Part shown: positions 3,840 through 47,912 of the stretch, one piece after another
How positions within the stretch are numbered: position 1 is the first letter of the stretch
How the letters are laid out: the number at the start of each line of letters is the position of its first letter
Assembly: GCA_000004695.1 (NCBI GenBank)
Contig: CM000150.2
Span: forward strand, 32,001-96,000
Direction: 5' to 3'
Source of the DNA: Dictyostelium discoideum
Lineage: Eukaryota
DNA length: 64,000 bases
The notes under the pieces: generated by a model
The model's input: the letters and a program-made list of their open reading frames with translations, nothing else
The model's database searches: none
What the model was told of the DNA's origin: nothing
Translations under genes and position numbers: made by a program

Positions 3840-5640
3840 AAACATAGAAGTAGAAGATATCATCTACTTTTCATATTAATTTAATATGAAGTTTTTAACT
3901 TGGAAAAATTAAATTTATTGAATATCAAAAAGAGCACCAAAATCAACAAGTTTTGTTTCATTTGATAAATCACTTCTGATTGTTTGGTATTTATTGACTA
4001 AATAGCCAATGACACACCACACATCGTGATGTCTTTCCAAAACTTTATCCATATCTATTGTATCGCTTTTAAATTTATATATAAGTGGTAGACTTGCTAT
4101 TTAAAATTGTTTAATTCTTGTAAATACGTTTTCTATAATTATTCTAATAGATTTTTGATTGTTATCTTTTTATTTTTGGTAATCAGTTCTTTGACCTGAT
4201 GGGATCGTAAATATATTTTTGAAATGTTTTGTTAAACCCCTGAATCTTTTGTCACCAAACACGGAATCAACATTTTCATCTAATGATTTAATAAATTCTA
4301 AATCTCTTTGAAATAAATTAATATCGTTTTTACAACCACCACTTGGGTACCCTATGTGTAATATTTTCCCACTATTAGGACAACAATAAACTAGTAGAGT
4401 TAAAGTTGATTTACATTTTTTACCACTGTATAACATATTTCTTAATTTTTCATTGGTGGGAATAGTTATTTGTTGTTCCGATCCATCCACCACCATTGTT
4501 ACTGTATATTGTTTAACACCATCATTATAGTCACAACTATTTGATTTATCTTTTCTATCATTAAATATTGATTGGAAATTATTAATTGCTAATTGTTTTG
4601 TATATATTATATATTCATCAACATATCTTTTTAAAGTTCTGGTATCAATATTAAAAAGAACTTCCATTATAACAGGTCATGTATAGTGGCGAAAATAAAT
4701 GCAATATAGTTTCTTTCGACCCCTTTTTTCACCATTTTTAACAACCAACTTTTCTAAAATGTAGTCATTGAAATTTTCGTATGATATTCCAATTAAAGAT
4801 AAAAATTTATCCTTTAATTTTTCAATGGATACATTTGTTAAAAATTGTCTTTTATTTTTATTTTTTTGTTTTGATATTTTTGGAATTACCTTTTGGTTTT
4901 CCTTGAACCAACTCTTGTTCATCCTCTTCTTCTTCTTCATCATTTTTTGATTTTGATCTTGTTTTAATTGGTTCTTTTTTATCTTTTGATTTTTCATCTT
5001 TTTCTTCTTTTTCTTTTTCTTTTTCTTTTTCTTTTGGGGAGAATCTTCTTATAATTGTCTCCATGGTTTGTGTATATTGTTTCAATTTTACTGGTGAATT
5101 TACATTTGATATTTGTTTTGTTTGTTGAGTCGATTCTATCTGTTGAATGGGTTCAATGTTTTCAATGGTTTCGATTGGTTGTTTGGACTGATTTTGATGT
5201 TTGAACTAGCTGTGATTCATCTTTGAAGAAATTTAGTTTTAATTCATTTGTTCTTTTTCTTTTCCACCTTTCTTCACTTGAGAGTGAACAATTATTCATA
5301 TTTTATTCAACAAAGTTCAATTTAAAAGTTAATTCTTCAACTTTTTTTGATAATTCTTCTATCTGTTTTTGTTTATCATTAAATTGTTCAATTGTTGGAA
5401 ATCTTTCAATTTCATTTTCATCTAGTTTAACATTTATACATTTATGAACATGTTCTTGAATTAATTCAATCGTTTTGGCTGAAAATTCAATTACACAATT
5501 ACATATAAAACATTCAGTTGTAAACTTTTTCATATTAAATTTTATATTGTAAAACAAAAAAAAAAATTTAACAAAAAAAAACAAATTTTTTTTTTTTTAT
5601 TTTTTTTTGTTTTTTTTTTTTGCGGAAATTTATGATATAT
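3840..5640 (-). mobile_element. Putative Harbinger/PIF-like DNA transposon remnant; boundaries approximate and no TIRs identified
   Basis: Contains the DDE_Tnp_4-like transposase pseudogene (see 4101-5533), flanked by homopolymer-rich AT sequence. Confidence 0.4.
4101..5533 (-). pseudogene. Harbinger/PIF-type (DDE_Tnp_4-like) transposase, disrupted. Catalytic core at 4170-4667. An in-frame TAA at 4170 is followed by the C-terminal '..RIIIENVFTRIKQF' motif (to about 4101). Upstream exon-like pieces at 4677-4997 and 5303-5533 (C2HC-like N-terminus).
   Basis: Motifs VVDGSEQQITIP, YSGKKCKSTLTLLVYCCPNSGKILHIGYPSGGCKNDINLF, VFGDKRFRGL and IENVFTRIK match the D..D..E layout of Harbinger transposases. 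An in-frame stop and frame breaks are present. Confidence 0.55.
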
Positions 5641-5698: not shown

Positions 5699-7884
5699 TT
5701 AATTCAGTCCCAAATAATTCATTATAATCATCATTAAATAAGTTGCTAAATGATTATATTGATTTGGTTTTAAGTTTCTAACAATTATTTGATTGATAAA
5801 ATCTGTGACTGATTTATTTTCTTTTACATGCAACTGATTATCTTCTTTCCTTTGTATATTGGATGACATATCTGGATTAGAAACAAATTTGGAATTGATT
5901 AGACACTTTCGGAGAACATTCGAGACAATTCTGACCATGATTTGAGCTTGACCATTACCATGATGGTGGTAAGGCAGACATGTATTGTGAGTAATATTGT
6001 TGACTTGAATACATTTCTTCCAAGGTGTTGATGTGAACAAAGTATCATTATACTCAACTTGATCAACAGTACAGGCATCCAACCCGGATATAAAGTCCAT
6101 ATTGATTTCCATAAAGCATCAGACAGGTAAATGAGATGGCAAGTATAATCCCATGTTCATCTGTGGCGCATAAACAAACATTGCAACTCTTGCAGTAAAA
6201 TAAGATATATTCCATCATTCCATACCAATAAAAATTTCTCTTGACTAATTCAGAAGTTTTACGATTACTCCAGTGTCCAGCAATAGCAGAATCATGATAA
6301 CTTGAAATGACTAACTGTATGACATCTTCAATCTTGATCCATTCGATACCATTCTGATATGTGATACTTAAACTTTTATACTGGTCGTTGATGGTTTCAG
6401 ATTTAATAAGTTTAGCTTCCAATTCATAACCTTTTAAAATTTCCTTAACGATCTTCATTTCATCAAGAATGATACCTGTATTAAAATAATTTTTATCACA
6501 AAAAGAATTTTTAAGAGAGTTAGTAATTTGAGAGAAGTCCATTTTACTTCGATCGAAGTTATGTGATAAATATTATTATTATAATGTGATCTGAAAGACC
6601 ATCAGCGGCTGAATTGGTGACGCCTTTGATGTATTCAAGTGTGACTTTTCAGGCATCAATCTTCTGCATCCATCTGTTGATTCTTTGATTTAACCCAAGG
6701 ACCCTTTGGTTTCTTAGGAATTAAATATTATTATGATGATTACCTTGAACCCAAAGATATTGAAGTGATGCATTTCTAATGATTTCACGAATAGGCTTCC
6801 TTTTCTAACACATTCAAGGTAGAATGGATACTTGGTATTTGGAAGGTTGAGACTTACCGCATTGGCTACAGCTGATTTAACTTGATCAAAAGCCAATTGC
6901 ACCTCAGTATCCCATGTGAAAGCAGAATTCTTCTTAGTGAGACGATAGAGTGGATCAGCTATAATGGCTAAATTTCGGATGAAATCCTTGCAATAATTAA
7001 CGGTTCCCATAAATTATCTAACGGTAGTCTTATCAATTGGTTCTGGCCACTCGACGATTTGACACGGATGAAGAGTTGTACTACATTACATTGAGGTTAT
7101 GATACTTGAGCTTATTGAATACCTGTGATAAATCTTGTTTATGTTGATCATAATAAAAAGATTTTGTTAGTACTAAAATATCATCGATATAGACCACGAC
7201 GAGTCCTCAATCGATTTCATCGGCCAATATTTGTTACATAAATCTTTGAAAAGTATACGGTGCATTCTTGGCACCGAATGGCATTCCCCTCCACTGGAAT
7301 GTACCAAAAGGTGTATGGAATGCTGTCTTTGACCGATCTCTAGGTTCTACTTGGATCTGGTGGAAACCATCGGCTAAATCGATCCTGGACATTAACTTTG
7401 CACCTTTGGTCTTCTGGATGAGTACCGTTGTATTTGGAAGTGGATAACTATCATAAATAGTAAAGTCATTTAATGAACGGTTATCGATGCACATTCACCA
7501 CTTACCATTTTTCTTCTTTGCGAATATCACTGGTGCACCGAATTCTGATTTGTTTCTTTCAATCCATAACTTCTTTAACCTTTCAGTAAGTTGATCTTTC
7601 AATTCTTGTTATATTGACAATAGTACTGGATAACATCTTGATTTTGGAACTTGTGCACCATATTTTAACTTCACTTCAAAATTGAAACCTTTCCGAGATG
7701 GCGGAACTTGGTCTAATGAATCGAAGACTTCCTTGTAGTTTCCCTTCAGATGTTTGATGATGAATTGATCTTGAACTTCTTTCCATTCTTGGTGTTTTAC
7801 TTCCACTACCTTGTATTTCTCTTGATTTGGCTGATGATTAACTTTGTGAACTTGGTACGTTGGTTGATGATTGAAGACCTCTTG
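5699..7884 (-). mobile_element. Ty3/gypsy-type LTR-retrotransposon pol fragment (Skipper/DGLT-like), degenerate: protease end and RT (7234-7806), RT thumb (6714-7010), integrase HHCC zinc finger and core (5699-6542); no LTRs in view
   Basis: Motifs VPPSRKGFNFEVKLKYGAQVPKSR.YPV, LMSRIDLADGFHQIQV, FGTFQWRGMPFGAKNAPYTFQRFM, HDSAIAGHW..C..C and an integrase core. Multiple stops and frameshifts. Confidence 0.7.
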
Positions 7885-7889
7885 ATCAT

Positions 7890-10049
7890 ATGAGCCAACA
7901 AAATTTAAATGAAAATTTTATAATTGATGAGAATAATAATAATTTAGAAAATGAAAATGAAAATGAAAATGAAAATAATTCATTTGAGGATATAGGAAAT
8001 ATATTAAACCAAAATGGACAAGAAAATGATGATATTGAAATTTTAAAAGAAAAAGAAAATGGAAATTTAGGAAAAGAATTAAATAATTATGAAATTGGAT
8101 TTTTAAAGTTGGGTTTAGAAAATGCTAAATCGTTAAAATTTATGCAACAAATTTTGGATTTTTTTAAAAACAATATAAATGCAATTAATGAAATTAGATA
8201 TACAACAAAGTATATGGATTCTATATTTTTAGCAAATTTACCTATCGATGGTCACTTTTTGAGTTACAAATATTATGAAGAGTCAATTTTTTATTATGAA
8301 ATTTGTTCAGTTGTAAAATTATTAATTGAAAAAAAAATTTTTTTAGAATATTTAGATTTCTCAAAAGACTATGAGCAAGGTATTTATAAAAATTATAAAT
8401 CTGGAGAACAATTCAAAAAAGTAAAAAATTCAATTTCAGATAAATTTATTTTATTAAGAATATTTAGTGACGGAATGAGTCATCAAGGTAGATCAGATTA
8501 TACTATAATGGTGGATTTTGAAAATTATAATGGTCCATTTTTTAAAAATAACAAAATTGTTTTATTTAGTGTTCCAAAAGAAAGGTTTCACAATATACAT
8601 CAAACAATTAAAAAATTATTTTCAGCGCAATTTAATAATAAATTAATAATTAAAGATAATAATGGAAATGATTATGAAATTATACCATATGGATTAACAA
8701 TGGATATACCAGAATTTAGATCATCTTGTAGGATTAACCATTATAATTGCAATGAGTTCTCATGTCATACATGTGATAAAGCAAGAGGTGTCGATTATTT
8801 ATTAAAAGAAGGAAATTATAGAAATCAAAAAGACATTATTGACTTTCACAATTCAAAACCAAATAAACAAGATTTTTTGAATCCTCAAAATAAAATTTTA
8901 AAATTAGAAACAGAACAAAAAATGAAAAAAATCGGCATTACAGATTATGACAGATCTTGGGTAGAAAATTTAAAAATAAATTATTTGTACTTACATACTG
9001 ATATTTTACACAAAATATTATTGGGTATTGTACAATGGGTTTTAAATTATATTTTCAAAAAATATAAGGATCAAATTACAATTTTTATAAAAAAATTAAA
9101 AGAAGCTAAAATCATTCCAGATCATTTACCACCATCAGAATCTTTATTTGGTGTAAAAACAAGAAAAGGTAGAGAGAATAGAAGCATATTATATTTTATT
9201 TTATTTTTTACTAAATCAAATGTATCAAATGATGATTCCTTATTATTAGAAGAAATGGTTCAGATTACTTTTTTATTATATCAAGATTCTTTCGACGAAG
9301 ATGATTTGGATAAAATAAATTATTTAGTTAAAAATTTTAATAAAAAAATATTTATGATAATACCAAATGAACCAATCAACTTTCACCTTTTATTACATTA
9401 TCCTTTATATATAAAAAATTGGGGTGCACCAAAATTTACATCAGCAGAGAGATTTGAAGCACAATTTAGTAAAATTAAAGACCTTTTGACAAACAATACA
9501 AACAACCAAGATCAACATAAATTTGAAAGAGTAACAAAAATATTAATGGCAACATTTTTAGATAATTTTAACAATCTAAAAGAAAAAGATGATGACAATA
9601 ATGATTTAATTTTAGGGCAAATAATTAAAAAAAATGAAAATATTTATTTAAAAAATAATATTTTATCAGACATTAACTTGCATTACAAAAACATTGAAAA
9701 TATTCAATTTCATAAATCAATTAAAAATTTAAAAGAAATATATAATGTTGGTGATGGAATTGAAGTTGCCTCAGAAAATTCATTAACTGGACGATGGAGT
9801 GCAATAATTATTGCTATTTGTTTAATAGAATTAAAAAATAAAAAAAGTGCACATTCTATTTATATACAATACTTTGATAAAGATATAGGTGATCAAAATA
9901 ATAAGTACCACTTTTTAAGAAAAAGCTTTTCAAGTATAGTATTTGATAACATAGTAAACACATTAATACCAATACAAATCGATTCGTCTAACTATCTTAT
10001 AATTTATAAGTGCCATGACCAATTTTCAATAAGTAAAAAAAAAAAATGA
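7890..10049 (+). CDS. Family-A transposase, N-terminally truncated (equals residues ~100-816 of the 31591-34041 copy)
   Basis: 719-aa ORF. Motifs IIPYGLTMDIPEF, HYNCNEFSCHTCDK, DILHKILLGIVQ, NFHLLLHYPLYIKNWGAPKFTSAERFEAQFSKIK and a C-terminal GDGIEVASENSLTGRWSAII...LIIYKCHD domain resemble the Transposase_21/DUF4218/DUF4216 blocks of CACTA TnpD. Confidence 0.7.
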   Translation: MSQQNLNENFIIDENNNNLENENENENENNSFEDIGNILNQNGQENDDIEILKEKENGNLGKELNNYEIGFLKLGLENAKSLKFMQQILDFFKNNINAINEIRYTTKYMDSIFLANLPIDGHFLSYKYYEESIFYYEICSVVKLLIEKKIFLEYLDFSKDYEQGIYKNYKSGEQFKKVKNSISDKFILLRIFSDGMSHQGRSDYTIMVDFENYNGPFFKNNKIVLFSVPKERFHNIHQTIKKLFSAQFNNKLIIKDNNGNDYEIIPYGLTMDIPEFRSSCRINHYNCNEFSCHTCDKARGVDYLLKEGNYRNQKDIIDFHNSKPNKQDFLNPQNKILKLETEQKMKKIGITDYDRSWVENLKINYLYLHTDILHKILLGIVQWVLNYIFKKYKDQITIFIKKLKEAKIIPDHLPPSESLFGVKTRKGRENRSILYFILFFTKSNVSNDDSLLLEEMVQITFLLYQDSFDEDDLDKINYLVKNFNKKIFMIIPNEPINFHLLLHYPLYIKNWGAPKFTSAERFEAQFSKIKDLLTNNTNNQDQHKFERVTKILMATFLDNFNNLKEKDDDNNDLILGQIIKKNENIYLKNNILSDINLHYKNIENIQFHKSIKNLKEIYNVGDGIEVASENSLTGRWSAIIIAICLIELKNKKSAHSIYIQYFDKDIGDQNNKYHFLRKSFSSIVFDNIVNTLIPIQIDSSNYLIIYKCHDQFSISKKKK

Positions 10050-10192
10050 AAAAAATTCGTTGAACTTATTTACATAACTTTTACATTTTTACGTAACTTT
10101 TTCTTTTTTTTTTTTCTTTTTTTCCAATTTTCTTTTTTTTCGGTTGGAAATTATAGGATTTTAAAAAAAATTAAAAAAATATTATAAAAAAA

Positions 10193-10482
10193 ATGACTCA
10201 CAATAATTCTACATCATTTGAAACACCAAATAGAAGTGGTAATTATGTAAATAGATCATCTTTAACTTCACCAACATCACCAATAACACCAATACCATCT
10301 CTTATTTTAAATCAAACTGATACCTCCATAGGTCCACAACGTACTGTTAGAAGACAACAAAGACCTCAAAGACCAAATGCAAGTCATCCACCAACAACAA
10401 ATATTGTAGAAAAAATATTGGTGTATGAAACATTGCACAGAAATTGTGTTTCTCAATACTATGCAACTGGTAAGGTAAGATA

Positions 10483-10530
<48 letters not shown>

Positions 10531-11179
10531 GACTAATTAAATTAAATAAACAAAAACAATACATAAGATTTCCTCTCGTTTTATTAGGACCTGTATATTA
10601 AATGCTGGCGGTACAAATTCAAATGAAAATAAAGTTGTTCTATCCAAATTGGTTAAATGGGTCAACAATAAACGTGGTAACACACGTATTAAAGCCCTAA
10701 ATACCCTTAGACTTTTAGTTAGAAATAAAGTAGAACAGTTCAGCGAGTTGCTCTCTCAGGTTCCAGCATTAATGGAGTATGAATCGGTATGTAAAAAAAA
10801 AAAAAAATAAAAAAATAAAAAAAAAAAAAAAAATAAAAAAAAAAATAAAAAAAAAAAAAAAAATAAATTATTAATAATTTGTTTTTTTAATTTTTTAATT
10901 ATTATTTAGATAACTCCTTTTGATTTGGCCACTCTTATTATCGATACAGTTACCTTAGAAGCTTTTGACTCCGATCCTTTTGTAAAGTTCTTAGTGTCTC
11001 AATGCTTTACAATTGAAGAAAAAGAATGGTACAGCGGTTCCAAACCTCTTATTTCTTTAATAGTTAAAGCATTGCGTGGTGTTTCTCAAAAGTTCATTGA
11101 CTCTCCTGATGAACTTACTTACACTGAAAAGGTTGCTTTTGAATTCACTTCAATACCTCTTTATGCTCCACTAAATTAA
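10193..11179 (+). CDS. Family-A second gene (accessory protein of unknown function), 3 exons: about 10193-10474, ~10568/10588-10786, ~10909-11179. Exact splice phases not resolved by hand.
   Basis: Exon 1 ends ...YYATGK followed by GTAAGA. AT-rich introns end in AG. All three exon translations are conserved in family B (39540-40243, and 61147-61900 reverse) while the introns are not. Confidence 0.5.
10488..10525. repeat. Poly(A) tract (~38 nt) inside intron 1 of the family-A second gene
   Basis: Homopolymer; the corresponding tract in copy 2 (34483-34541) is ~59 nt. Confidence 0.9.
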
Positions 11180-11340
11180 ATCGTTTAAATAAAAAAAATT
11201 AATATGATTTCACATACTCAACTTTAATTTTTTCTTTTTTTTTTAAATCTTTATTTAATTTTTATTTTAAATTTTTATTTTTAATTTTTATTTTTAAAGT
11301 GATATTATTAATATATCTTATTAAGTTAACTTTATAATAT

Positions 11341-11760
11341 AAATTTATAAATGCACTTTTAAATTGAATTTTATAAATATAATTAATAAGAATACTTAAT
11401 AAGTGTACTTATAAAGAGTACATTATAATTATAAATAGTAATTACGCTTAATAAGTATACTTAATAATAATACTTAATAATAATACTTAATAAGTATACT
11501 TATTAAGTATACTTATTAATTTTACTTAATATGTATACTTATTAATTTTACTTAATATGTATACTTAATAATTATACTTAATAAGTATACTAATTAATTA
11601 TACTTAATAATTATACTTAATAATTATACTTAATAAGTATACTTAATAAGTATACTTAATAAGTGTATTTAATAAGTATACTTAATAAGTATACTTTATA
11701 AGTATATTTAATAAGTATACTTAAAAAGTATACTTTATAACTATACTTATTAAGTACACT
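11341..11760. repeat. Tandem array of ~15-17-bp units (TACTTAATAAGTATA and variants): subterminal repeats of family A
   Basis: Visible periodic repetition; the same array is at 35341-35760 and related arrays flank family-B ends (30300-30480, 36400-36480, 40808-40920). Confidence 0.75.
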
Positions 11761-14104: not shown

Positions 14105-17100
14105 TTATGAAATTTGGACGACAGTATTTAAGAAACCACCAGATTTTTCACCAATGATTCTTTTATCGTAGAAGGTATCTACAGTATCATTTGATTTCCA
14201 ACGACCCATCTTCTTAACAACGTGGAACGGAACGTTATTGGACAACAGCAGAGAAGCCATAGCGGAACGGGTAGAGTGAGATTTGAACTTGACAATATCA
14301 ATACCTGACTTTGAGAGTGTTGATAGTACAATTGAGTTAATATCATTAACTTGGAGCGGTTCACCCTCATTCTTAATAAAGACAGAGTCACCCGAATGGG
14401 GCTTTCTTCTTCCTTTAGAGGCTCTAAGGTATGTTGCAAGGTGGCGAACAGGGCATACTTGAGAGTTTGTATCATCTAACGATGTTAATTCTAATATTGA
14501 AACAACACCACTTCTTTGTTCTTTAGCATTAATAACTGGACCTTTAATTGAGTCAGTAGTAATAATGAGACCTTTGAACGACCACTTCACCAAGTCTGAT
14601 GATCTTGCTAAACCAAACATTTTACAGAGTACAAGTGTCTTGTTTAATAGCGCAGTGTATGTGTACTTAGGGATAACTTTGATAGTAGATAAGTGCTTGA
14701 ATACTTGATTTGCATCCCATATCTCTTTATACTTTGCAGATGAAGGACGCAACTTGTGAATACCAGTCATAATTCTTGTGATGAATGGATCATTAACAAT
14801 ATCAGTTTGATTCCTGAGGAGTAACAACTGATTCAACATAGAGCGATGACCGTTAATTGTTGAGAAGGCTAACGGAGGTTTGTGTTTGAATAGATGTGTA
14901 AGATAATCCATGAAAACAACTAAGGTAATGTTTGCTGGATTCAAAGAGTTCAAAGTACAGAAATTGCGGAATCTTGTATAACTGGAGCTATATACTTTGA
15001 GAGTTGAAGGTTCCCAAGACTTCATTAACAGCTCAGCTGTTTTTGTATTTGCTGTACGAGCGAAGGACATTACATGAGATTGGAAAGTTGAATAATCCCC
15101 AGTTTCCAACGTTGTTGAATCTGGATTGGTATCGACTCTACTGATTGTTTGGTCAATACTTCTTGGAATGTTCCCAGTACTTGAGGGAACATGTGACGAT
15201 GATGACGAGGAACTTGTGCTTGAATCATCGGATACCAAGTTGCTGATCTCCAGATTGGGAAGATCAGTATTATAGAAACCTTCTTCGAACTGGATGAGTT
15301 CATCTTCTCCAGGATAGAAGGCAAAAGAATGGGTGGTGGGAAGGCCAGACATTGCTTCCATTGACTCCAGTCGAGGTGGAGTGCATTCATTCTGATTGTT
15401 GAGTAGTTGTTCGTTTGATGGTTCAGGTGAGATGCGAACAGATCCATCTGTATTTGACCGAATTGAAGTTGGATGCGATTGAACACTTCTTTCTTCAGTT
15501 GCCAGTTGTAACTCTTGATTACTCTGGTGGATGATTTGTGATTCATCTCTGAAAGACGGCTGAGGTGGTCGGCTTTTACATTGAAGAATCCTGGAATATG
15601 CTCTCCAATCAAGTTCACTTTCTTTTTGAGGCATTGTTTCCAAAGTTGTTCGAACAGAACTGAGAGATCTTGTATTTGACCACCCTGGCGATTGATGTAA
15701 GAGAGAGTAGTAGTGTTGTCGGTTTGAATCTTCAGCTTGCAGTTGTTTAGTTTCCGACATAGCGCTTGATAGGCCATAAGCAGCGCGAGCATTTCTCGAC
15801 GATTTGACGACATGTTTGATTGAGTTGTTGACCACTGGAATGACCAAGTTTTGATTACCTTGTTTCCTTTCTTGAGTGTGGCACCTGCACCTGATTCCGA
15901 GGCATCGGTTGTAAGAACATAGTCGTAACTTGGAAACAGACTGATTTCTTTTCCATTCCATTGGTTTAGAACTGTTAACCAATGCGAAATCTCTGACTTG
16001 ACCTCTTGGGGAATGGGGAATGATTGATCCCAATCTCCTTTGGCTATAGTCAGACACTGAGAGTGAAACTTGTTTGTTCGACGAGTGTAAAGTCTGAATG
16101 GGATGACTGCATCTTTCAGTGCGATTAACTTTCCTTTTAAACCAGCAAGCTTTCTTGGGGAGCAACAATCTAGTTTTAAAAAGTTTCTTATTTCTTTGAT
16201 GACACTTTTCTTCTTTTCTTTGGGAACAAGAAGCTTCATTGATACCGAATCGATTTGTAATCCGAGAAACGTAATTGATTGAGTTGGTTCGAGAACACTC
16301 TTTTCTAGATTTAACTTGAAGCCTAGTTTGACAAGTAAGTCCATTGTCTTTTTGAGGTTGGATAAACATTCTTCTTTTGTTGAACCGACGATTAATAGAT
16401 CGTCCAAGTAAGCGATGACGGATACGTTGATATCTCTCAACATTCGAAGTACAGGTCTTAACAGCATTGTAAATATACGAGGAGCTGTCGATAACCCGAA
16501 CGGCATTGTTTTCCAACGGTAGTGCGAACCTTTCCACACGAAGCGGAATAAGTCTCTGTATTGTGGATCTACTAACACGTGGAGGTAGGCTTTCTTGATA
16601 TCGAGTTTTACCATGTAATAACCTTGTTTGACCATTGACGGTAGATTCTTGATTCCTTCCATCTTGAATGATTGGTTGTTGATGTAAGTGTTTAACCTTT
16701 TTAGATCGAGAACTGGACGATGTAGATTCGTTCCAGGTTTTGGAACCGTAAACACGTTGGAGTAAAAAACGCGCTTTGAATAACGGTTTGGAAGTACTTG
16801 TTCGATAGCATCGTCTAATAACAAGTCTTGTACTTCCTTTGTGATGCAATCTGATTTCGGACCCTCTGGAATTGAAATCGGAATTGGGTTTAGCATCGGC
16901 TTGAAATTTGGAAGCAGATGGACTTTTAATCCATTTACGACCTCTTGACAAAAGTTTGGAAGACCCAATTCTTTCCAAACTTGTTTGTGGTGGAACAGAC
17001 GTCCACCTACTGGTAAGTTTACTTCTTGTTCTTCTGAAAACGGTTGTTGGTACCGTTTGCAGACTTGGTATTGTTGCTACCTGATGCAACACTACTTGGT

Positions 17101-17182
17101 GATCCATTGAAGTTGTTAGATCGGCCATTACTCCCACTACTGGATTTACTATTACTACTGTTTCCTGTAGTGTTATTACCAC
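14105..17182 (-). CDS. DIRS-1 long overlapping frame (ORF2), 1025 aa; C-terminal ~300 aa (about 14105-15060) is the tyrosine-recombinase domain; the N-terminal part overlaps ORF3 in another frame
   Basis: Open in all intact copies (also 20425-23520, 42542-45619). The true translation start is uncertain. Confidence 0.7.
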   Translation of the reverse strand: MVITLQETVVIVNPVVGVMADLTTSMDHQVVLHQVATIPSLQTVPTTVFRRTRSKLTSRWTSVPPQTSLERIGSSKLLSRGRKWIKSPSASKFQADAKPNSDFNSRGSEIRLHHKGSTRLVIRRCYRTSTSKPLFKARFLLQRVYGSKTWNESTSSSSRSKKVKHLHQQPIIQDGRNQESTVNGQTRLLHGKTRYQESLPPRVSRSTIQRLIPLRVERFALPLENNAVRVIDSSSYIYNAVKTCTSNVERYQRIRHRLLGRSINRRFNKRRMFIQPQKDNGLTCQTRLQVKSRKECSRTNSINYVSRITNRFGINEASCSQRKEEKCHQRNKKLFKTRLLLPKKACWFKRKVNRTERCSHPIQTLHSSNKQVSLSVSDYSQRRLGSIIPHSPRGQVRDFALVNSSKPMEWKRNQSVSKLRLCSYNRCLGIRCRCHTQERKQGNQNLVIPVVNNSIKHVVKSSRNARAAYGLSSAMSETKQLQAEDSNRQHYYSLLHQSPGWSNTRSLSSVRTTLETMPQKESELDWRAYSRILQCKSRPPQPSFRDESQIIHQSNQELQLATEERSVQSHPTSIRSNTDGSVRISPEPSNEQLLNNQNECTPPRLESMEAMSGLPTTHSFAFYPGEDELIQFEEGFYNTDLPNLEISNLVSDDSSTSSSSSSSHVPSSTGNIPRSIDQTISRVDTNPDSTTLETGDYSTFQSHVMSFARTANTKTAELLMKSWEPSTLKVYSSSYTRFRNFCTLNSLNPANITLVVFMDYLTHLFKHKPPLAFSTINGHRSMLNQLLLLRNQTDIVNDPFITRIMTGIHKLRPSSAKYKEIWDANQVFKHLSTIKVIPKYTYTALLNKTLVLCKMFGLARSSDLVKWSFKGLIITTDSIKGPVINAKEQRSGVVSILELTSLDDTNSQVCPVRHLATYLRASKGRRKPHSGDSVFIKNEGEPLQVNDINSIVLSTLSKSGIDIVKFKSHSTRSAMASLLLSNNVPFHVVKKMGRWKSNDTVDTFYDKRIIGEKSGGFLNTVVQIS
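15070..16968 (-). CDS. DIRS-1 ORF3 (reverse transcriptase / RNase H / C-terminal MT-like region), 632 aa, intact
   Basis: Motifs YLDDLLIVGS (RT), TDASESGAGATL and NVKADHLSR (RNase H). Confidence 0.85.
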   Translation of the reverse strand: MGLPNFCQEVVNGLKVHLLPNFKPMLNPIPISIPEGPKSDCITKEVQDLLLDDAIEQVLPNRYSKRVFYSNVFTVPKPGTNLHRPVLDLKRLNTYINNQSFKMEGIKNLPSMVKQGYYMVKLDIKKAYLHVLVDPQYRDLFRFVWKGSHYRWKTMPFGLSTAPRIFTMLLRPVLRMLRDINVSVIAYLDDLLIVGSTKEECLSNLKKTMDLLVKLGFKLNLEKSVLEPTQSITFLGLQIDSVSMKLLVPKEKKKSVIKEIRNFLKLDCCSPRKLAGLKGKLIALKDAVIPFRLYTRRTNKFHSQCLTIAKGDWDQSFPIPQEVKSEISHWLTVLNQWNGKEISLFPSYDYVLTTDASESGAGATLKKGNKVIKTWSFQWSTTQSNMSSNRREMLALLMAYQALCRKLNNCKLKIQTDNTTTLSYINRQGGQIQDLSVLFEQLWKQCLKKKVNLIGEHIPGFFNVKADHLSRLSEMNHKSSTRVIKSYNWQLKKEVFNRIQLQFGQIQMDLFASHLNHQTNNYSTIRMNALHLDWSQWKQCLAFPPPILLPSILEKMNSSSSKKVSIILIFPIWRSATWYPMIQAQVPRHHRHMFPQVLGTFQEVLTKQSVESIPIQIQQRWKLGIIQLSNLM

Positions 17183-18026
17183 TTGAGTTAACTAATTTCT
17201 TGACATTGGACTTGGAATGATAATTCAATTTTAACAATGATTGTTTAGCTTCGTTGTTCTTTCTGATTGACTTGGCTAGCTTTCTTACACGTTCAGTTTC
17301 AGTTTCATCAAACATCTTTGGTGTATCCTTGATCTTAATTGGTAAGAGTACTTCAGAACCATAGATTTCTTTAGCGATGTTGTTACGACGGACACGACTA
17401 AGCGATGCTTGAGCATTAACGGCTAAAACGATTGCACTCTGAGTTAAGTAACTAATAAGTTCTACATCGACATTAGAGCTATCAGATGATAACATACTTG
17501 ACATGAGAAGCAAAGGTTTTAAGCTATCGTTGATTCGCTTTTCAACAATCAACAAGTCAGTATCATTGTTCTTGACGTTGGATGATACAGTAATACCTTC
17601 AGGTGTACCGAATGGAGCGACATTCACTTGGAAGTTAGATGGAAAGTTGAATACTTTATTCAATTCGGATATTTCATCTTTCTTGAGGATACATTCTTCT
17701 TCGACGAGTAAACCTTGATTGTTAACCATATGTTTGTACTGACCAAGTAAGGTATCGGATAATTGATAATCGGTTGGAACATCGACATTGTTACTTGATT
17801 CATCTTCACTTTGTTCATTCTCGGTGTCAGAGTCATCATGAGAAGGTTGGCTACGTGAATTGGTATTAGATGAGAACATAGGTTCTTTCATGAATCTTGT
17901 AAAGGCTAAGGAAAGGTTGTTGATTTGATCCTCCATTGATTTCATTCTTAAATCAAAGGATTCAGCGCTATTAGAGACAGAGGTACTACTACTAGAGGCA
18001 TCATTATTATTAACAGTGGTAGACAT
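17019..18026 (-). CDS. DIRS-1 ORF1 (Gag-like), 335 aa, intact
   Basis: Open ORF; same protein in copies at 28063-29070 and 45456-46463. Confidence 0.85.
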   Translation of the reverse strand: MSTTVNNNDASSSSTSVSNSAESFDLRMKSMEDQINNLSLAFTRFMKEPMFSSNTNSRSQPSHDDSDTENEQSEDESSNNVDVPTDYQLSDTLLGQYKHMVNNQGLLVEEECILKKDEISELNKVFNFPSNFQVNVAPFGTPEGITVSSNVKNNDTDLLIVEKRINDSLKPLLLMSSMLSSDSSNVDVELISYLTQSAIVLAVNAQASLSRVRRNNIAKEIYGSEVLLPIKIKDTPKMFDETETERVRKLAKSIRKNNEAKQSLLKLNYHSKSNVKKLVNSSGNNTTGNSSNSKSSSGSNGRSNNFNGSPSSVASGSNNTKSANGTNNRFQKNKK

Positions 18027-18478
18027 ATTTTATTGTTGATATCTAAAATTATAATATGAGAAAAATAATAATATTAAAAATTAATAAAGAGAAATAATTA
18101 TTTGTATAAAATTTGTGTGTGTGTGTATCTTAAATATATATAGGAGGAATTCCCAAATAAAATAAATCAAATTGTTTTAGTTTTTTGTGCCACTATTTAT
18201 ACGTTTTTATTTTCTTAAAAATTTCGCAAAACTCAAAAAAATAAGAGTTTTCGACCCTTCACAACTTTGTGCATAGTGTCGGTTCGGAATTTTTCAGTTT
18301 TTCGACCTTACACAATGATCGCGTCATTGTGCCGGTTCGAAATTTTTACTTTTCTTTCGAAAATTTTTTTTTATTCTTCGAATGTTCTAGAACATTCTAA
18401 AAAATTATCTTAAATATTTGGGAAATTCAAATAAATAAATGTTATTCATAATATATATATATATATGATAATATAAAT

Positions 18479-19974: not shown

Positions 19975-22900
19975 AAATTTAATTTATTAAATTATATTTT
20001 ATATTAAATATATATATATATATATTATGAATAACATTTATTTATTTGAATTTCCCAAATATTTAAGATAATTTTTTAGAATGTTCTAGAACATTCGAAG
20101 AATAAAAAATTTTCGAAAGAAAAGTAAAAATTTCGAACCGGCACAATGACGCGATCATTGCGACAGGTCGAAAAACTGAAAAATTCCGAACCGACACTAT
20201 GCACAAAGTTGTGAAGGGTCGAAAATACTTATTTTTTTTGAGTTTTGCGAAATTTTTAAGAAAAGAAAAACTTATAAATAGGGCACTAAAAACTAAAACA
20301 ATTTGATTTATGGAATTCCGACTAAGGGCGGGTGGGATGGGACTAATATATATATATATTTAATATAAAATATAATTTAATAAATTAAATTTTTAATTTA
20401 TATTATCATATATATATATATATATTATGAAATTTGGACGACAGTATTTAAGAAACCACCAGATTTTTCACCAATGATTCTCTTATCGTAGAAGGTATCT
20501 ACAGTATCGTTTGATTTCCAACGACCCATCTTCTTGACAACGTGGAACGGAACGTTATTGGACAACAGCAGAGAAGCCATAGCGGAACGGGTAGAGTGAG
20601 ATTTGAACTTGGAAATATCAATACCTGACTTTGAGAGTGTTGATAGTACAATTGAGTTAATATCATTAACTTGGAGTGATTCACCTTCATTCTTAATAAA
20701 GACAGAGTCACCCGAATGGGGCTTTCTTCTTCCTTTAGAGGCTCTAAGGTATGTTGCAAGGTGGCGAACAGGGCATACTTGAGAGTTAGTATCATCTAAA
20801 GATGTTAATTCTAAGATTGAAACAACACCACTTCTTTGTTCTTTAGCATTAATAACTGGACCTTTAATTGAGTCAGGAGTAATAATGAGACCTTTGAACG
20901 ACCACTTCACCAAGTCTGATGATCTTGCTAAACCAAACATTTTACAGAGTACAAGTGTCTTGTTTAATAGCGCAGTGTATGTGTACTTAGGGATAACTTT
21001 GATAGTAGATAAGTGCTTGAATACTTGATTTGCATCCCATATCTCTTTATACTTTGCTGATGAAGGACGCAACTTGTGAATACCAGTCATAATTCTTGTA
21101 ATGAATGGATCATTAACAATATCAGTTTGATTCCTAAGGAGTAATAACTGATTCAACATAGATCGATGACCGTTAATTGTTGAGAAGGCTAACGGAGGTT
21201 TGTGCTTGAACAGATGTGTAAGATAATCCATGAAAACAACTAAGGTAATGTTTGCTGGATTCAAAGAGTTCAAAGTACAGAAATTGCGGAATCTTGTATA
21301 ACTGGAGCTATATACTTTGAGAGTTGAAGGTTCCCAAGACTTCATTAACAGCTCAGCTGTTTTTGTATTTGTTGTACGAGCGAAGGACATTACATGAGAT
21401 TGGAAAGTTGAATAATCCCCAGTTTCCAACGTTGTTGAATCTGGATTGGTATCGACTCTACTGATTGTTTGGTCAATACTTCTTGGAATGTTCCCAGTAC
21501 TTGAGGAAACATGTGACGATGATGACGAGGAACTTGTGCTTGAATCATCGGATACCAAGTTGCTGATCTCCAGATTGGGAAGATCAGTATTATAGAAACC
21601 TTCTTCGAACTGGATGAGTTCATCTTCTCCAGGATAGAAGGCAAAAGAATGGGTGGTGGGAAGGCCAGACATTGCTTCTATTGACTCCAATCGAGGTGGA
21701 GTGCATTCATTCTGATTGTTGAGTAGTTGTTCGTTTGATGGTTGAGGTGAGATGCGAACAGATCCATCTGTATTTGACCGAATTGAAGTTGGATGCGATT
21801 GAACACTTCTTTCTTCAGTTGCCAGTTGTGACTCTTGATTACTCTGGTCGATGATTTGTGATTCATCTCTGAAAGACGACTGAGGTGGTCGGCTTTTACA
21901 TTGAAGAATCCTGGAATATGCTCTCCAATTAAGTTCACTTTCTTCTTGAGGCATTGTTTCCAAAGTTGTTCGAACAGAACTGAGAGATCTTGTATCTGAC
22001 CACCCTGGCGATTGATATAAGAGAGAGTGGTAGTGTTGTCGGTTTGAATCTTCAGCTTGCAGTTGTTCAGTTTCTGACATAGCGCTTGATAGGCCATTAG
22101 CAGTGCGAGCATTTCTCGACGATTTGACGACATGTTTGATTGAGTTGTTGACCACTGGAATGACCAAGTTTTGATTACCTTGTTTCCTTTCTTGAGAGTG
22201 GCACCTGCACCTGATTCCGAGGCATCGGTTGTAAGAACATAGTCGTAACTTGGAAACAGACTGATTTCTTTTCCATTCCATTGGTTTAGAACTGTTAACC
22301 AATGTGAAATCTCTGACTTGACATCTTGAGGAATGGGGAATGATTGATCCCAATCTCCATTGGCTAGAGTCAGACACTGAGAGTGAAACTTGTTTGTTCG
22401 ACGAGTGTAAAGTCTGAATGGGATGACTGCATCTTTCAGTGCGATTAGCTTTCCTTTTAAACCAGCAAGCTTTCTTGGGGAGCAAAAATCTAGTATTAAA
22501 AAGTTTCTTATTTCCTTGATGACACTTTTCTTCTTTTCTTTGGGAACAAGAAGCTTCATTGATACCGAATCGATTTGTAATCCGAGAAACGTAATTGATT
22601 GAGTTGGTTCGAGAACACTCTTTTCTAAGTTTAACTTGAAACCTAGTTTGACAAGTAAGTCCATTGTCTTTTTGAGGTTGGATAAACATTCTTCTTTTGT
22701 TGAACCGACGATTAATAGATCGTCCAAGTAAGCGATGACGGATACGTTGATATCTCTCAACATTCGAAGTACAGGTCTTAACAACATTGTAAAGATACGA
22801 GGAGCTGTCGATAACCCGAACGGCATTGTTTTCCAACGGTAGTGCGAACCTTTCCACACGAAGCGGAATAAGTCTCTGTATTGCGGATCTACTAATACGT

Positions 22901-25222
22901 GGAGGTAGGCTTTCTTGATATCGAGTTTTACCATGTAATAACCTTGTTTGACCATTGATGGTAGATTCTTGATTCCTTCCATCTTGAATGATTGGTTGTT
23001 GATGTAAGTGTTTAACCTTTTTAGATCGAGAACTGGACGATGTAGATTCGTTCCAGGTTTTGGAACCGTAAACACGTTGGAGTAAAAAACGCGCTTTGAA
23101 TAACGGTTTGGAAGAACTTGTTCGATAGCATCGTCTGATAACAAGTCTTGTACTTCCTTTGTGATGCAATCTGGACCCTCTGGAATTGAAATCGGAATTG
23201 GGTTTAGCATCGGCTTGAAATTTGGAAGTAGATGGACTTTTAATCCATTTACGACCTCTTGACAAAAGTTTGGAAGACCCAATTCTTTCCAAACTTGTTT
23301 GTGGTGGAACAGACGTCCACCTACTGGTAAGTTTACTTCTTGTTCTTCTGAAAACGGTTGTTGGTACCGTTGGCAGACTTGGTATTGTTGCTACCTGATG
23401 CAACACTACTTGGTGATCCATTGAAGTTGTTAGATCGGCCATTACTCCCACTACTGGATTTACTATTACTACTGTTTCCTGTAGTGTTAATACCACTTGA
23501 GTTAACTGATTTCTTGACATTGGGCTTGGAATGATAATTCAATTTTAACAATGATTGTTTTGCTTCGTTGTTCTTTCTGATTGACTTGGCTAGCTTTCTT
23601 ACACGTTCAGTTTCAGTTTCATCAAACATCTTTGGTGTATCCTTGATCTTAATTGGTAAGAGTACTTCAGAACCATAGATTTCTTTAGCGATGTTGTTAC
23701 GACGGACACGACTAAGCGATGCTTGAGCATTAACGGCTAAGACGATTGCACTCTGAGTTAAGTAACTAATAAGTTCTACATCGACATTAGAGCTATCAGA
23801 TGATAACATACTTGACATGAGAAGCAAAGGTTTCAAGCTATCGTTGATTCGCTTTTCGACAATCAACAAGTCAGTATCATTGTTCTTGACGTTGGATGAT
23901 ACAGTAATACCTTCAGGTGTACCGAATGGAGCGACATTCACTTGGAAGTTAGATGGAAAGTTGAATACTTTATTCAATTCGGATATCTCATCTTTCTTGA
24001 GGATACATTCTTCTTCGACAAGTAAACCTTGATTGTTTACCATATGTTTGTACTGACCAAGTAAGGTATCGGATAATTGATAATCGGTTGGAACATCAAC
24101 ATTGTTACTTGATTCATCTTCACTTTGTTCATTCTCGGTGTCAGAGTTATCATGAGAAGGTTGGCTACGTGAGTTGGCACGATTAAGCGATGCTTGAGCA
24201 TTAACGGCTAAGACGATTGCACTCTGAGTTAAGTAACTAATAAGTTCTACATCGACATTAGAGCTATCAGATGATAACATACTTGACATGAGAAGCAAAG
24301 GTTTCAAGCTATCGTTGATTCGCTTTTCGACAATCAACAAGTCAGTATCATTGTTCTTGACGTTGGATGATACAGTAATACCTTCAGGTGTACCGAATGG
24401 AGCGACATTCACTTGGAAGTTAGATGGAAAGTTGAATACTTTATTCAATTCGGATATCTCATCTTTCTTGAGGATACATTCTTCTTCGACAAGTAAACCT
24501 TGATTGTTTACCATATGTTTGTACTGACCAAGTAAGGTATCGGATAATTGATAATCGGTTGGAACATCAACATTGTTACTTGATTCATCTTCACTTTGTT
24601 CATTCTCGGTGTCAGAGTTATCATGAGAAGGTTGGCTACGTGAGTTGGTATTAGAAGAGAACATAGGTTCTTTCATGAATCTTGTAAAGGCTAAGGAAAG
24701 GTTGTTGATTTGATCCTCCATTGATTTCATTCTTAAATCAAAGGATTCAGCGCTTTTAGAGGCAGAGGTACTACTACTAGAGGTATCATTATTATTAACA
24801 GTGGTAGACATATTTTATTGTTGATATCTAAAATTATAATATGAGAAAAATAATAATATTAAAAATTAATAAAGAGAAATAATTATTTGTATAAAATTTG
24901 TGTGTGTGTGTATCTTAAATATATATAGGAGGAATTCCCAAATAAAATAAATCAAATTGTTTTAGTTTTTAGTGCCACTATTTATACGTTTTTATTTTCT
25001 TAAAAATTTCGCAAAATCAAAAAAATAAGAGTTTTCGACCCTTCACAACTTTGTGCATAGTGTCGGTTCGGAATTTTTCAGTTTTTCGACCTTGCGCAAT
25101 GATCGCGTCATTTTGCCGGTTCGAAATTTTTACTTTTCTTTCGAAAATTTTTTATTCTTCGAATGTTCTAGAACATTCTAAAAAATTATCTTAAATATTT
25201 GGGAAATTCAAATAAATAAATG
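19975..25222 (-). mobile_element. DIRS-1 copy D5: ORF2 open (20425-23520). ORF3 split by a frameshift near 21650-21680 (534-aa and 84-aa pieces). ORF1 carries a 471-bp internal tandem duplication. Left ITR truncated at 25222 where it abuts D6.
   Basis: ORF-track; the duplicated ORF1 segment gives identical antisense ORFs at 23817-24032 and 24288-24503. Confidence 0.85.
23333..24811 (-). CDS. DIRS-1 ORF1 variant with in-frame 157-codon tandem duplication (492 aa)
   Basis: Protein repeats ..NSRSQPSHDNSDTENEQSEDESSNNVDVPTDYQLSD...AVNAQASL twice and stays in frame. Confidence 0.8.
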   Translation of the reverse strand: MSTTVNNNDTSSSSTSASKSAESFDLRMKSMEDQINNLSLAFTRFMKEPMFSSNTNSRSQPSHDNSDTENEQSEDESSNNVDVPTDYQLSDTLLGQYKHMVNNQGLLVEEECILKKDEISELNKVFNFPSNFQVNVAPFGTPEGITVSSNVKNNDTDLLIVEKRINDSLKPLLLMSSMLSSDSSNVDVELISYLTQSAIVLAVNAQASLNRANSRSQPSHDNSDTENEQSEDESSNNVDVPTDYQLSDTLLGQYKHMVNNQGLLVEEECILKKDEISELNKVFNFPSNFQVNVAPFGTPEGITVSSNVKNNDTDLLIVEKRINDSLKPLLLMSSMLSSDSSNVDVELISYLTQSAIVLAVNAQASLSRVRRNNIAKEIYGSEVLLPIKIKDTPKMFDETETERVRKLAKSIRKNNEAKQSLLKLNYHSKPNVKKSVNSSGINTTGNSSNSKSSSGSNGRSNNFNGSPSSVASGSNNTKSANGTNNRFQKNKK

Positions 25223-28200: not shown

Positions 28201-29513
28201 ACTGTTTCCTGTAGTGTTATTACCACTTGAGTTAACTAATTTCTTGACATTGGGCTTGGAATGATAATTCAATTTTAACAATGATTGTTTTGCTTCGTTG
28301 TTCTTTCTGATTGACTTGGCTAGCTTCCTTACACGTTCAGTTTCAGTTTCATCAAACATCTTTGGTGTATCCTTGATCTTAATTGGTAAGAGTACTTCAG
28401 AACCATAGATTTCTTTAGCGATGTTGTTACGACGGACACGACTAAGCGATGCTTGAGCATTAACGGCTAAGATGATTGCACTCTGAGTTAAGTAACTAAT
28501 AAGTTCTACATCGACATTAGAGCTATCAGATGATAACATACTTGATATGAGAAGCAAAGGTTTCAAGCTATCGTTGATTCGCTTTTCGACAATCAACAAG
28601 TCAGTATCATTGTTTTTGACGTTGGATGATACAGTAATACCTTCAGGTGTACCGAATGGAGCGACATTCACTTGGAAGTTAGATGGAAAGTTGAATACTT
28701 TATTCAATTCGGATATCTCATCTTTCTTGAGGATACATTCTTCTTCGACGAGTAAACCTTGATTGTTTACCATATGTTTGTACTGACCAAGTAAGGTATC
28801 GGATAATTGATAATCGGTTGGAACATCGACATTCTTACTTGATTCATCTTCACTTTGTTCATTCTCGGTGTCAGAGTTATCATGAGAAGGTTGGCTACGT
28901 GAATTGGTATTAGAAGAGAACATAGGTTCTTTCATGAATCTTGTAAAGGCTAAGGAAAGGTTGTTGATTTGATCCTCCATTGATTTCATTCTTGAATCAA
29001 AGGATTCAGCACTATTAGAGGCAGAGGTACTACTACTAGAGGCATCATTATTATTAACAGTGGCAGACATATTTTATTGTTGATATCTAAAATTATAATA
29101 TGAGAAAAATAATAATATTAAAAATTAATAAAGAGAAATAATTATTTGTATAAAATTTGTGTGTGTGTGTATCTTAAATATATATAGGAGGAATTCCCAA
29201 ATAAAATAAATCAAATTGTTTTAGTTTTTAGTGCCACTATTTATACGTTTTTATTTTCTTAAAAATTTCGCAAAACTCAAAAAAATAAGAGTTTTCGACC
29301 CTTCACAACTTTGTGCATAGTGTCGGTTCGGAATTTTTCAGTTTTTCGACTTTGTGCAATTATCGCGTCATTGTGCCGGTTCGAAATTTTTACTTTTCTT
29401 TCGAAAATTTTTTATTCTTCGAATGTTCTAGAACATTCTAAAAAATTATCTTAAATATTTGGGAAATTCAAATAAATAAATGTTATTCATAATATATATA
29501 TATATGATAATAT
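25223..29513 (-). mobile_element. DIRS-1 copy D6: lacks the right ITR and the last ~25 codons of ORF2 (junction with D5). ORF3 (26114-28012, 632 aa) and ORF1 (28063-29070, 335 aa) are open. Left ITR about 29085-29513.
   Basis: At 25222/25223 the sequence jumps from an ITR (..aaatgtta) directly into the recombinase coding sequence (cagtatcgtttgattt...). Confidence 0.85.
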
Positions 29514-47049: not shown

Positions 47050-47912
47050 TTATTTGGGAAAACTCTTATTTTTTTGTATTTGACCACCTTGGCGATTGAT
47101 GTAAGAGAGAGTGGTAGTATTGTCGGTTTGAATCTTCAGTTTGCAGTTGTTCAGTTTCTGACATAGCGCTTGATAAGCCATTAGCAGCGCGAGCATTTCT
47201 CGACGATTTGACGACATGTTTGATTGAGTTGTTGACCACTGGAATGACCAAGTTTTGATTACCTTGTTTCCTTTCTTGAGTGTGGCACCTGCACCTGATT
47301 CCGAGGCATCGATTGTAAGAACATAGTCGTAGCTTGGAAACAGACTTATTTCTTTTCCATTCCATTGGTTTAGAACTGTTAACCAATGAGAAATCTCTGA
47401 CTTGACCTCTTGAGGAATGGGGAATGATTGATCCCAATCTCCATTGGCTAGAGTCAGACACTGAGAGTGAAACTTGTTTGTTCGACGAGTGTAAAGTCTG
47501 AATGGGATGACTGCATCCTTCAGTGCGATTAGCTTTCCTTTTAAACCAGCAAGCTTTCTTGGGGAGCAACAATCTAGTTTTAAAAAGTTTCTTATTTCCT
47601 TGATGACACTTTTCTTCTTTTCTTTGGGAACAAGAAGCTTCATTGATACCGAATCGATTTGTAATCCGAGAAACGTAATTGATTGAGTTGGTTCGAGAAC
47701 ACTCTTTTCTAGATTTAACTTGAAACCTAGTTTGACAAGTAAGTCCATTGTCTTTTTGAGGTTGGATAAACATTCTTCTTTTGTTGAACCGACGATCAAT
47801 AGATCGTCCAAGTAAGCGATGACGGATACGTTGATATCTCTCAACATTCGAAGTACAGGTCTTAACAGCATTGTAAATATACGAGGAGCTGTCGATAACC
47901 CGAACGGCATTT
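47050..47912 (-). mobile_element. DIRS-1 internal fragment D9 (RT/RNase H part of ORF3 only)
   Basis: ORF 47050-47910 MPFGLSTAPRIF...TDNTTTLSYINRQGGQIQ. Confidence 0.8.

Follow-up and report, generated by a model that had tools for sequence, protein, structure and literature searches.

What does the 165-codon open reading frame on the minus strand of this locus represent: a host gene, a gene of bacterial origin or the remains of a mobile element? The frame lies at positions 4170–4667 of the 64,000-nucleotide stretch of Dictyostelium discoideum AX4 DNA that was analyzed here (the window), and a preliminary description, made from the sequence alone, had read it as the core of a Harbinger/PIF-type transposase pseudogene with the layout of the DDE_Tnp_4 family. 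Every peptide motif quoted in that description was found in the frame. When the ORF and its continuation beyond the stop codon were compared with Pfam, DDE_Tnp_4 (PF13359) was matched with a score of 58.9 bits (E = 6.2e-16), the curated cutoff being 24.8 bits; this is far beyond chance, and no rival DDE family scored higher, the runner-up being DDE_Tnp_1 with 22.5 bits. The second profile proposed for the check, PF04827 (Plant_tran), gave no match to the window ORF in the same search. Overall, DDE_Tnp_4 scores were 58.9–62.5 bits for the window copy and 57–82 bits for its relatives, while the ORFs upstream had no Pfam match when scanned alone. The AX4 gene model DDB_G0267216 (P0012, 165 amino acids), which UniRef labels "DDE Tnp4 domain-containing protein", is residue-for-residue identical to the window ORF. 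As argued below, the interval from about 5635 to 3861 (minus strand) is very probably a dead, 3′-truncated copy of a PIF/Harbinger (DDE_Tnp_4) cut-and-paste DNA transposon.

The catalytic triad is still encoded on the minus strand, by the codons at 4487–4485 (D), 4253–4251 (D) and 4133–4131 (E), all three of which align to columns that are invariant in the core alignment of the family. The glutamate lies outside the annotated ORF: an in-frame TAA (4172–4170) and, after it, the glutamate motif RIIIENVF are both real, as had been proposed, and the frame around and beyond this stop reads …TDYQK, stop, KDNNQKSIRIIIENVFTRIKQF, stop, IASLPL…HHDVWCVIGYLVNKYQTIR…DIQ, with the final stop at 3917–3915. 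In three-frame translation, one frame is open from about 5006 to 3915 except for three stops (TGA at 4679–4677, TAA at 4172–4170 and TAA at 4103–4101), and the codons of the related locus L001 at these three sites, read directly, specify Arg, Gln and Tyr. DDB_G0267216 is, judging by this reading frame, a truncated fragment without the catalytic glutamate. A functional role for the 165-residue product, for instance as a regulator that keeps the first two catalytic aspartates, might nonetheless be considered, given that the ORF is open, that it is also intact in a second strain (L003) with few substitutions, and that, among other transposons, there are systems in which a truncated transposase serves as a repressor. 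We regard such a role as very improbable: the ORF is the stretch between two of the three nonsense mutations, the frame downstream of it is still recognizably coding, and the product would have neither the catalytic glutamate, nor the N-terminal DNA-binding modules, nor a native start context.

The closest full-length relative, P0010 (691 amino acids), aligns to the window in three pieces. Residues 7–104 correspond to window positions 5512–5195 (43% identity, joint E = 9e-22 by tblastn), residues 127–180 to positions 5157–5002, past a frameshift located between 5195 and 5157, and residues ~350–677 to positions ~4997–3969, whereas a Cys-rich block (P0010 residues ~181–325, or ~145 codons) is deleted in the window near 5030. 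On the minus strand, exon 1 starts with a segment (5303–5533) that encodes a zinc-finger-like module of the form C-x2-C…H-x3-C and a coiled coil, and that ends at an in-frame TAA (5305–5303); aligned with the family, this ORF keeps all four metal ligands of the first finger-like motif, and it matches the upstream ORF of L002 at E = 1.6e-9. The rest of exon 1 (4890–5302, minus strand), as delimited by the P0010 alignment, comprises the frameshift, the deletion of the Cys-rich block and a K/E-rich linker that ends …QGKPKG. Exon 2 (3915–4831, minus strand) holds, in the single frame interrupted by the three stops, the helix-turn-helix region, the DDE catalytic domain and the C-terminus. Its helix-turn-helix stretch (~4760–4560) is shortened, carries the TGA stop and has no significant Pfam match; DNA homology of L001 to the window begins at 4974.

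Between the two exons lies a 58-nt intron remnant (4832–4889, minus strand) that begins GTAATT and ends in TG rather than AG, so that the window copy has no splice acceptor left. The change of frame between 4889 and 4831 coincides with the sole intron position conserved in the family, where GT…AG introns are found in L001 (10247–10347), L002 (9756–9826), L008 (7233–7321) and L011 (102 nt), so that intact introns measure 71–102 nt compared with 58 nt for the remnant. The preliminary description had taken 4677–4997 and 5303–5533 for N-terminal exons. The latter does match the N-terminus of the family, but because only one intron position is conserved, the reading of the upstream pieces as separate exons was rejected in favor of one broken exon and a single true intron. 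The ORF at 4677–4997 is accordingly composite, its 3′ part (4831–4677) being true exon 2 and its 5′ part out-of-frame exon 1 together with the intron remnant. Downstream of exon 2, a piece of the 3′ non-coding part has been kept (3869–3914, minus strand), including the palindrome TTCATATTAAATTAATATGAA at 3890–3870, to which a palindrome located downstream of the stop codon in L002 (10776–10798) is similar.

The ends of the element became apparent from comparison with L003, which comes from a different strain of D. discoideum and represents, on a contig of 13 kb, the same locus as the window at 99.4% identity. Inside the element the two differ at only 12 of 1,765 nt, none of them at a stop codon, and inactivation is therefore older than the split of the two strains. 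Terminal repeats reading TAAATTTCCGCAA[A/G]A are located in L003 at 7086 and 8911, and the element is flanked there by TCA on both sides (7083–7085 and 8912–8914). In the window, the core of the 5′ terminal inverted repeat, TAAATTTCCGCAAAA, occupies 5618–5632 (minus strand), with its inverted partner in L003 at 8911–8897 (14/15 matches), and is flanked at 5633–5635 (minus strand) by TCA, the same trinucleotide as at both element ends in L003 and a probable copy of the target-site duplication. An A-rich extension of the 5′ repeat probably reaches about 5573. The repeat (5632–5618) also agrees at 17/19 positions with the motif that precedes the closest full-length relative, in L007. Placement of the 5′ terminus comes from the comparisons with L003 and L007, not from the window alone, where the terminal motif of L002 gave a 3-mismatch match at chance level and inverted-repeat searches returned A/T homopolymer matches only; in DNA as AT-rich as that of the window (GC 0.20–0.42), mononucleotide shuffles overrate significance.

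The 3′ repeat is missing from the window, since AX4 is without ~862 bp that are found in L003 (about 8852–9713) and that hold the last ~60 bp of the element, the 3′ terminal inverted repeat, the TCA and an integrase fragment. Comparison with L003 places the deletion junction, with an 8-nt filler AGTAGATG, at 3861–3868 (minus strand). Because L003 has matching repeats and flanks, the AX4 deletion is taken as the derived state, and it appears specific to AX4 in this two-strain comparison. The extent of 4101–5533 originally given to the feature thus falls short of the whole, which runs from ~5635 to ~3861. No empty site of the insertion was found, the L003 flanks occurring nowhere else in the window or in the loci studied.

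The pseudogene status claimed at the outset is well supported: the window copy has a frameshift and four in-frame stops (one in exon 1, three in exon 2), its splice acceptor, its Cys-rich block and its 3′ repeat are gone, and it cannot function. Its surroundings are also repetitive. Just upstream, at 5699–7600 on the minus strand, degenerate fragments of an integrase (Integrase_H2C2, 54 bits) and of a reverse transcriptase mark an LTR retrotransposon, and the window contains at least four repeated sets of ORFs of 1025, 632 and 335 amino acids, which are DIRS-type elements as judged from the tyrosine-recombinase domain of the 1025-aa ORF. Surrounded by such retrotransposon debris, the copy is situated in a DIRS-type repeat cluster, and as a relic it is ordinary.

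The family to which it belongs is widespread among Dictyostelia. A single-sequence homology search recovered relatives in dictyostelids only and missed most members, even the identical AX4 protein. A profile search recovered family members that had been missed, including P0012, as well as full-length proteins of 640–700 amino acids from new assemblies of D. discoideum and D. cf. discoideum (P0008, P0009, P0010, P0013 and P0014), proteins in Cavenderia, Heterostelium, Polysphondylium, D. purpureum and D. firmibasis, and two more short AX4 models, DDB_G0268906 and DDB_G0268438. An exhaustive profile search returned 3,618 matches at E≤1e-3. Several paralogous lineages are present per genome, and the nearest named relatives outside Dictyostelia are proteins of Willaertia and Pharyngomonas (Heterolobosea) and a "transposase family protein" of a bacterial MAG. 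In full-length proteins HTH_Tnp_4 precedes DDE_Tnp_4, the former scoring above its Pfam cutoff in P0008, P0011, P0013, P0014 and P0025. Full-length members also share the N-terminal finger-like motif C-x2-C…H-x3-C and a second conserved block, C-x2-C-x3-C…[FY]-C-x3-C…W, which no Pfam model matches. A sequence search of the PDB gave acidic low-complexity noise only, with no solved structure related by sequence.

An insertion sequence of the bacterial IS5 family, brought in by horizontal transfer or present as contamination, might be considered, given that DDE_Tnp_4 and DDE_Tnp_1 are common to IS5-like elements, that weak matches to NCBIfam IS5/IS982 models were obtained and that many metagenomic relatives of ~280 amino acids exist, among them a protein from a Fervidobacterium MAG. 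However, the NCBIfam scores of 13–19 bits are far below the respective cutoffs (110–275 bits), and the family has a spliceosomal GT…AG intron whose position is conserved, the AT-rich composition of Dictyostelium, eukaryote-style N-terminal extensions and a distribution over at least seven dictyostelid species or lineages plus Heterolobosea. A bacterial source therefore seems exceedingly improbable, and a eukaryotic PIF/Harbinger-type element is the reading that we retain.

Many of the copies compared are themselves damaged. L001 has lost sequence from either end and contains one stop and one frameshift, the helix-turn-helix linker of L002 is broken, and the gene models of P0008 and P0010 contain implausible "introns" of 34–35 nt that look like annotation workarounds for defects. 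In L011, from a strain assembly of D. discoideum (GCA_054859355.1), a 2,401-bp element with near-perfect terminal repeats of ~45 nt carries a gene for a 687-aa protein that is open save for one canonical intron of 102 nt. By its sequence, this is apparently an intact copy.

Mobility is indicated by the ends of the elements and by their locations. Across the family, elements measure 1.8–2.5 kb and their terminal inverted repeats begin TAA… / TAATAATG..., with 14–15 of the first 15 terminal nucleotides matching in L002, L003, L004, L005, L008 and L011. Two Heterostelium copies, L004 and L005, are 96.6% identical over 2.1–2.3 kb with sharp ends and unlike flanks, and have terminal inverted repeats of ~125 bp starting TAATAATGGGCAC. 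Likewise, L002 of D. discoideum and L008 of D. cf. discoideum share 85.6% identity along 2.5 kb and have unrelated flanks, and the motif TAAYTTTCACCAAAA occurs in each with zero mismatches, exactly twice per locus, in inverted orientation and at the boundaries of homology. Identical 3-nt flanks were found in six of seven elements (TGA/TGA five times and TCA/TCA once, in L003), the exception being L007 (TCA/AAG), and no direct repeats were found farther out in the six elements. TGA is the reverse complement of TCA, and the pattern is most simply explained if a T-S-A target, hit in either orientation, is duplicated over 3 bp. The flanks have the length of the 3-bp target-site duplication expected for Harbinger elements but read T-S-A in place of TWA. 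Since the trinucleotides are the same within each related pair, they could in part be inherited element sequence and not independent duplications; were the trinucleotide part of the element, however, its switch in the window lineage would have required coordinated changes, one at each end.

A difference in occupancy between sister species was found at the L008 locus. In the orthologous D. discoideum locus, L009, the same two neighboring genes are 280 nt apart, compared with 2.8 kb, and the L008 element is absent. Homology of the left flanks runs to …AACARATATTATCT, the last base before TGA, which confirms the left boundary of the element; on the right side, a 9-nt indel in the AT-rich spacer blurs the empty site at base level, and a clean single TGA was not seen in comparison with L009 or L010. 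The contrast between L008 and L009 shows that an insertion (or a loss) occurred between the two species.

These observations bear on whether the relic is a decayed host gene of HARBI1 type, domesticated as a cellular nuclease of transposase origin, and not a transposon. Such a gene would fit with the relatives in L001, L002, L008 and L011, which stand singly among ordinary genes, with the annotation of the AX4 model as an ordinary hypothetical protein, and with the divergence of the copies under purifying selection. In the HTH-DDE region, dN/dS (Nei-Gojobori) was 0.16 between the window and L001 (dS 0.45), 0.12 between L002 and L008, and 0.16–0.27 for deeper pairs, in which dS is saturated; purifying selection therefore acted during most of the divergence, and the examined copies decayed late. 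Purifying selection of this kind is, however, also what would be expected of active transposases. Moreover, the genes lie between terminal inverted repeats with identical 3-nt flanks, related copies are found at loci that are not orthologous, a sister species has no element at the locus orthologous to that of one copy, and the window copy is disabled and lies within a retrotransposon cluster. The host-gene explanation is largely refuted by these features and we give it very little credence. Terminal repeats, identical flanks, non-orthologous loci, presence/absence variation and an intact copy elsewhere together argue for a transposon and not merely a gene family.

The assignment to PIF/Harbinger is based on a DDE_Tnp_4 score above threshold, the order HTH_Tnp_4 then DDE_Tnp_4, terminal inverted repeats, identical 3-nt flanks, an intron-containing transposase gene, a size of 1.8–2.5 kb, copies at non-orthologous sites and the presence/absence of the L008 element. 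Differences are also clear. Canonical Harbinger elements use a separate Myb-like protein to recognize the element ends, and their usual target is TWA (TTA/TAA), whereas the dictyostelid elements are flanked by T-S-A (TGA/TCA), have no second Myb/SANT-like ORF and encode a transposase with N-terminal zinc-finger-like modules of its own. The Myb-like partner ORF anticipated in the preliminary description was not encountered: the complete elements L008 and L004 have no second ORF, their other ORFs being shorter than 100 amino acids and overlapping the transposase exons, and no Myb/SANT domain was detected in any Pfam scan of the window copy and its relatives. The nearest named relatives, moreover, are protist proteins and not plant or animal PIF or HARBI1. 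Vertebrate HARBI1, a domesticated Harbinger transposase, shares the Pfam catalytic family but is an immobile gene of the host that occurs in single copy and has no terminal repeats. The dictyostelid elements, by contrast, are bounded by repeats and found at varying locations, and some of their copies are dead. Closer in organization is ISL2EU, a group often merged into PIF/Harbinger, in which a single ORF fuses a THAP-type finger to an IS5-like DDE transposase and the duplications are reported to be 2 bp long. The dictyostelid elements likewise have a single ORF with a zinc-finger domain fused to the DDE transposase, but their flanks are 3 nt long, and no THAP domain was found at E<=0.5 among nine full-length family proteins.

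Intact members would thus carry a single intron-containing gene for a transposase of ~690 amino acids that starts with a C2HC-like zinc finger, continues with a coiled coil and a Cys-rich finger block, and ends with HTH_Tnp_4 followed by the catalytic DDE_Tnp_4 domain. The DNA-binding modules may recognize the terminal inverted repeats (TAA...), and the DDE center would then excise the element and reinsert it through a 3-bp staggered cut at T-S-A sites, with the fused finger modules presumably taking over the recognition of the ends that is performed by the Myb-like protein in canonical Harbinger. From sequence alone, we infer that intact members may be active at present. Whether the relic represents an uncatalogued dictyostelid Harbinger-type lineage that has kept its autonomy in some strains of D. 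discoideum, with L011 as the intact copy, that uses a single finger-fused protein in place of the Myb partner and that targets T-S-A sites, is a proposal that we advance only tentatively.

The DNA transposons of D. discoideum named in a 2017 review are Tdd, DDT and thug, whose transposases, according to that review, are all unlike known ones (PMC5633606); the list is in agreement with the suggestion in the preliminary description that this superfamily is missing from the classical catalogue. Tdd-4/5, DDT-A/B/S and thug-S/T share with the window element the host, class II membership and a setting among other repeats. The transposases of Tdd-4/5 are retroviral-integrase-like (PMC2836005), whereas Pfam scans of the window copy detected no rve domain, and those of DDT and thug have been described as without similarity to known transposases (PMC5633606), whereas the window transposase is readily recognized by Pfam, a distinction from DDT and thug that is drawn from published description only. 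For dictyostelids, a survey of elements published in 2013 names Sola2 and not Harbinger (PMC3627910), and a 2025 PNAS paper on ten new Nanopore and Illumina Dictyostelium assemblies, from which the strain assemblies compared here probably come, does not mention the family (PMC12745789). Our literature search, which did not extend to Repbase, Dfam or the 2001 catalogue, found no substantive link of Harbinger or HARBI1 to Dictyostelium. The DDE Tnp4 domain label of DDB_G0267216 was already known from public databases (UniProt/UniRef); what is new is the full anatomy of the window copy, the ends and flanks of the family, an architecture in which one ORF carries fused fingers and no Myb partner is encoded, the T-S-A sequence of the flanks and the apparently intact strain copy.

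D. discoideum is a model organism, and its transposon catalogue, fixed in 2001, has no DNA transposons besides Tdd, DDT and thug. As this locus shows, a recognizable PIF/Harbinger-type family exists as well, with several deep lineages across Dictyostelia and at least one apparently intact copy in a strain sequenced recently. DDB_G0267216 is, by our reading, a transposon fragment and deserves to be flagged as a pseudogene or as TE-derived; DDB_G0268906 and DDB_G0268438 are probably transposon fragments as well, and relics of this family have caused several gene models of the new strain assemblies to be over-spliced or chimeric. The single-ORF finger-fused architecture would offer a compact Harbinger-type system in which to study how a transposase finds the ends of its element without a Myb partner.

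The 3' end of the dead PIF/Harbinger copy has been lost in AX4. Compared with the same locus in one other D. discoideum strain (L003), approximately 862 bp (L003 8852-9713) are absent from AX4, and the lost segment includes the transposon's 3' end together with an integrase fragment. The deletion junction (window 3861-3868) carries an 8-nt filler, AGTAGATG, which forms a palindrome with the adjoining ATATCTTCTAC. A short way downstream of the transposase stop codon lies a further palindrome of about 21 nt, TTCATATTAAATTAATATGAA / TTCCATATAAAATTAATATGGAA (window 3870-3890; 10776-10798 in the related D. discoideum locus L002), conserved in two lineages whose proteins are only 54% identical; this palindrome may serve as a terminator or as a subterminal binding site.

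Directly adjoining the transposon's 5' end are degenerate LTR-retrotransposon pieces (window 5699-7600, minus strand) with an Integrase_H2C2 domain at 6063-6542 and reverse-transcriptase motifs, and a separate RVT_1 ORF occupies 1133-2440 on the plus strand. Sets of 1025-, 632- and 335-aa ORFs are repeated at window 14105-18026, 20425-24811, 25242-29070 and 42542-46463, with partial sets near 47050-55860; because a tyrosine-recombinase (Phage_integrase) domain is encoded in the 1025-aa ORF, they form a DIRS-type retroelement cluster. A recurrent motif, AAAAATTTCGCAAAA, in most cases with CTCAAAAA after it, occurs at 15 window sites on both strands (for example, 407-421, 18217-18231, 25002-25016 and 46653-46667) and probably belongs to the DIRS-type repeat units; it bears a superficial likeness to the transposon's terminal motif. 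Long plus-strand ORFs of 705-816 aa, situated in very AT-rich stretches, were also found at 7890-10049, 31591-34041 and 36992-39109; the first two were compared with Pfam and had no match.

L007, the D. cf. discoideum locus of the closest full-length relative (P0010), contains another DDE_Tnp_4 gene, 312 aa long (1585-2523), which is separated by 3.5 kb from the P0010 element and adjoins a perfect-register inverted duplication of approximately 540 bp (2374-2914).

Gene models in new strain assemblies splice around the stops and frameshifts of transposon relics (L003 6618-8547 and 8665-9577; L001, a related copy, 10001-11654; L008, D. cf. discoideum, 6091-6125; L007 6772-6805); the 34-35-nt "introns" are implausibly short. 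In one case, the P0007 gene model, a neighbouring integrase is joined to the transposase C-terminus. AX4 has two further short gene models, P0029 (DDB_G0268906) and P0033 (DDB_G0268438), on the 4.92-Mb contig that carries DDB_G0267216; they are fragments of the family's L002-type lineage, with 77-81% identity to the family protein P0002, and are probably mis-annotated relics as well.
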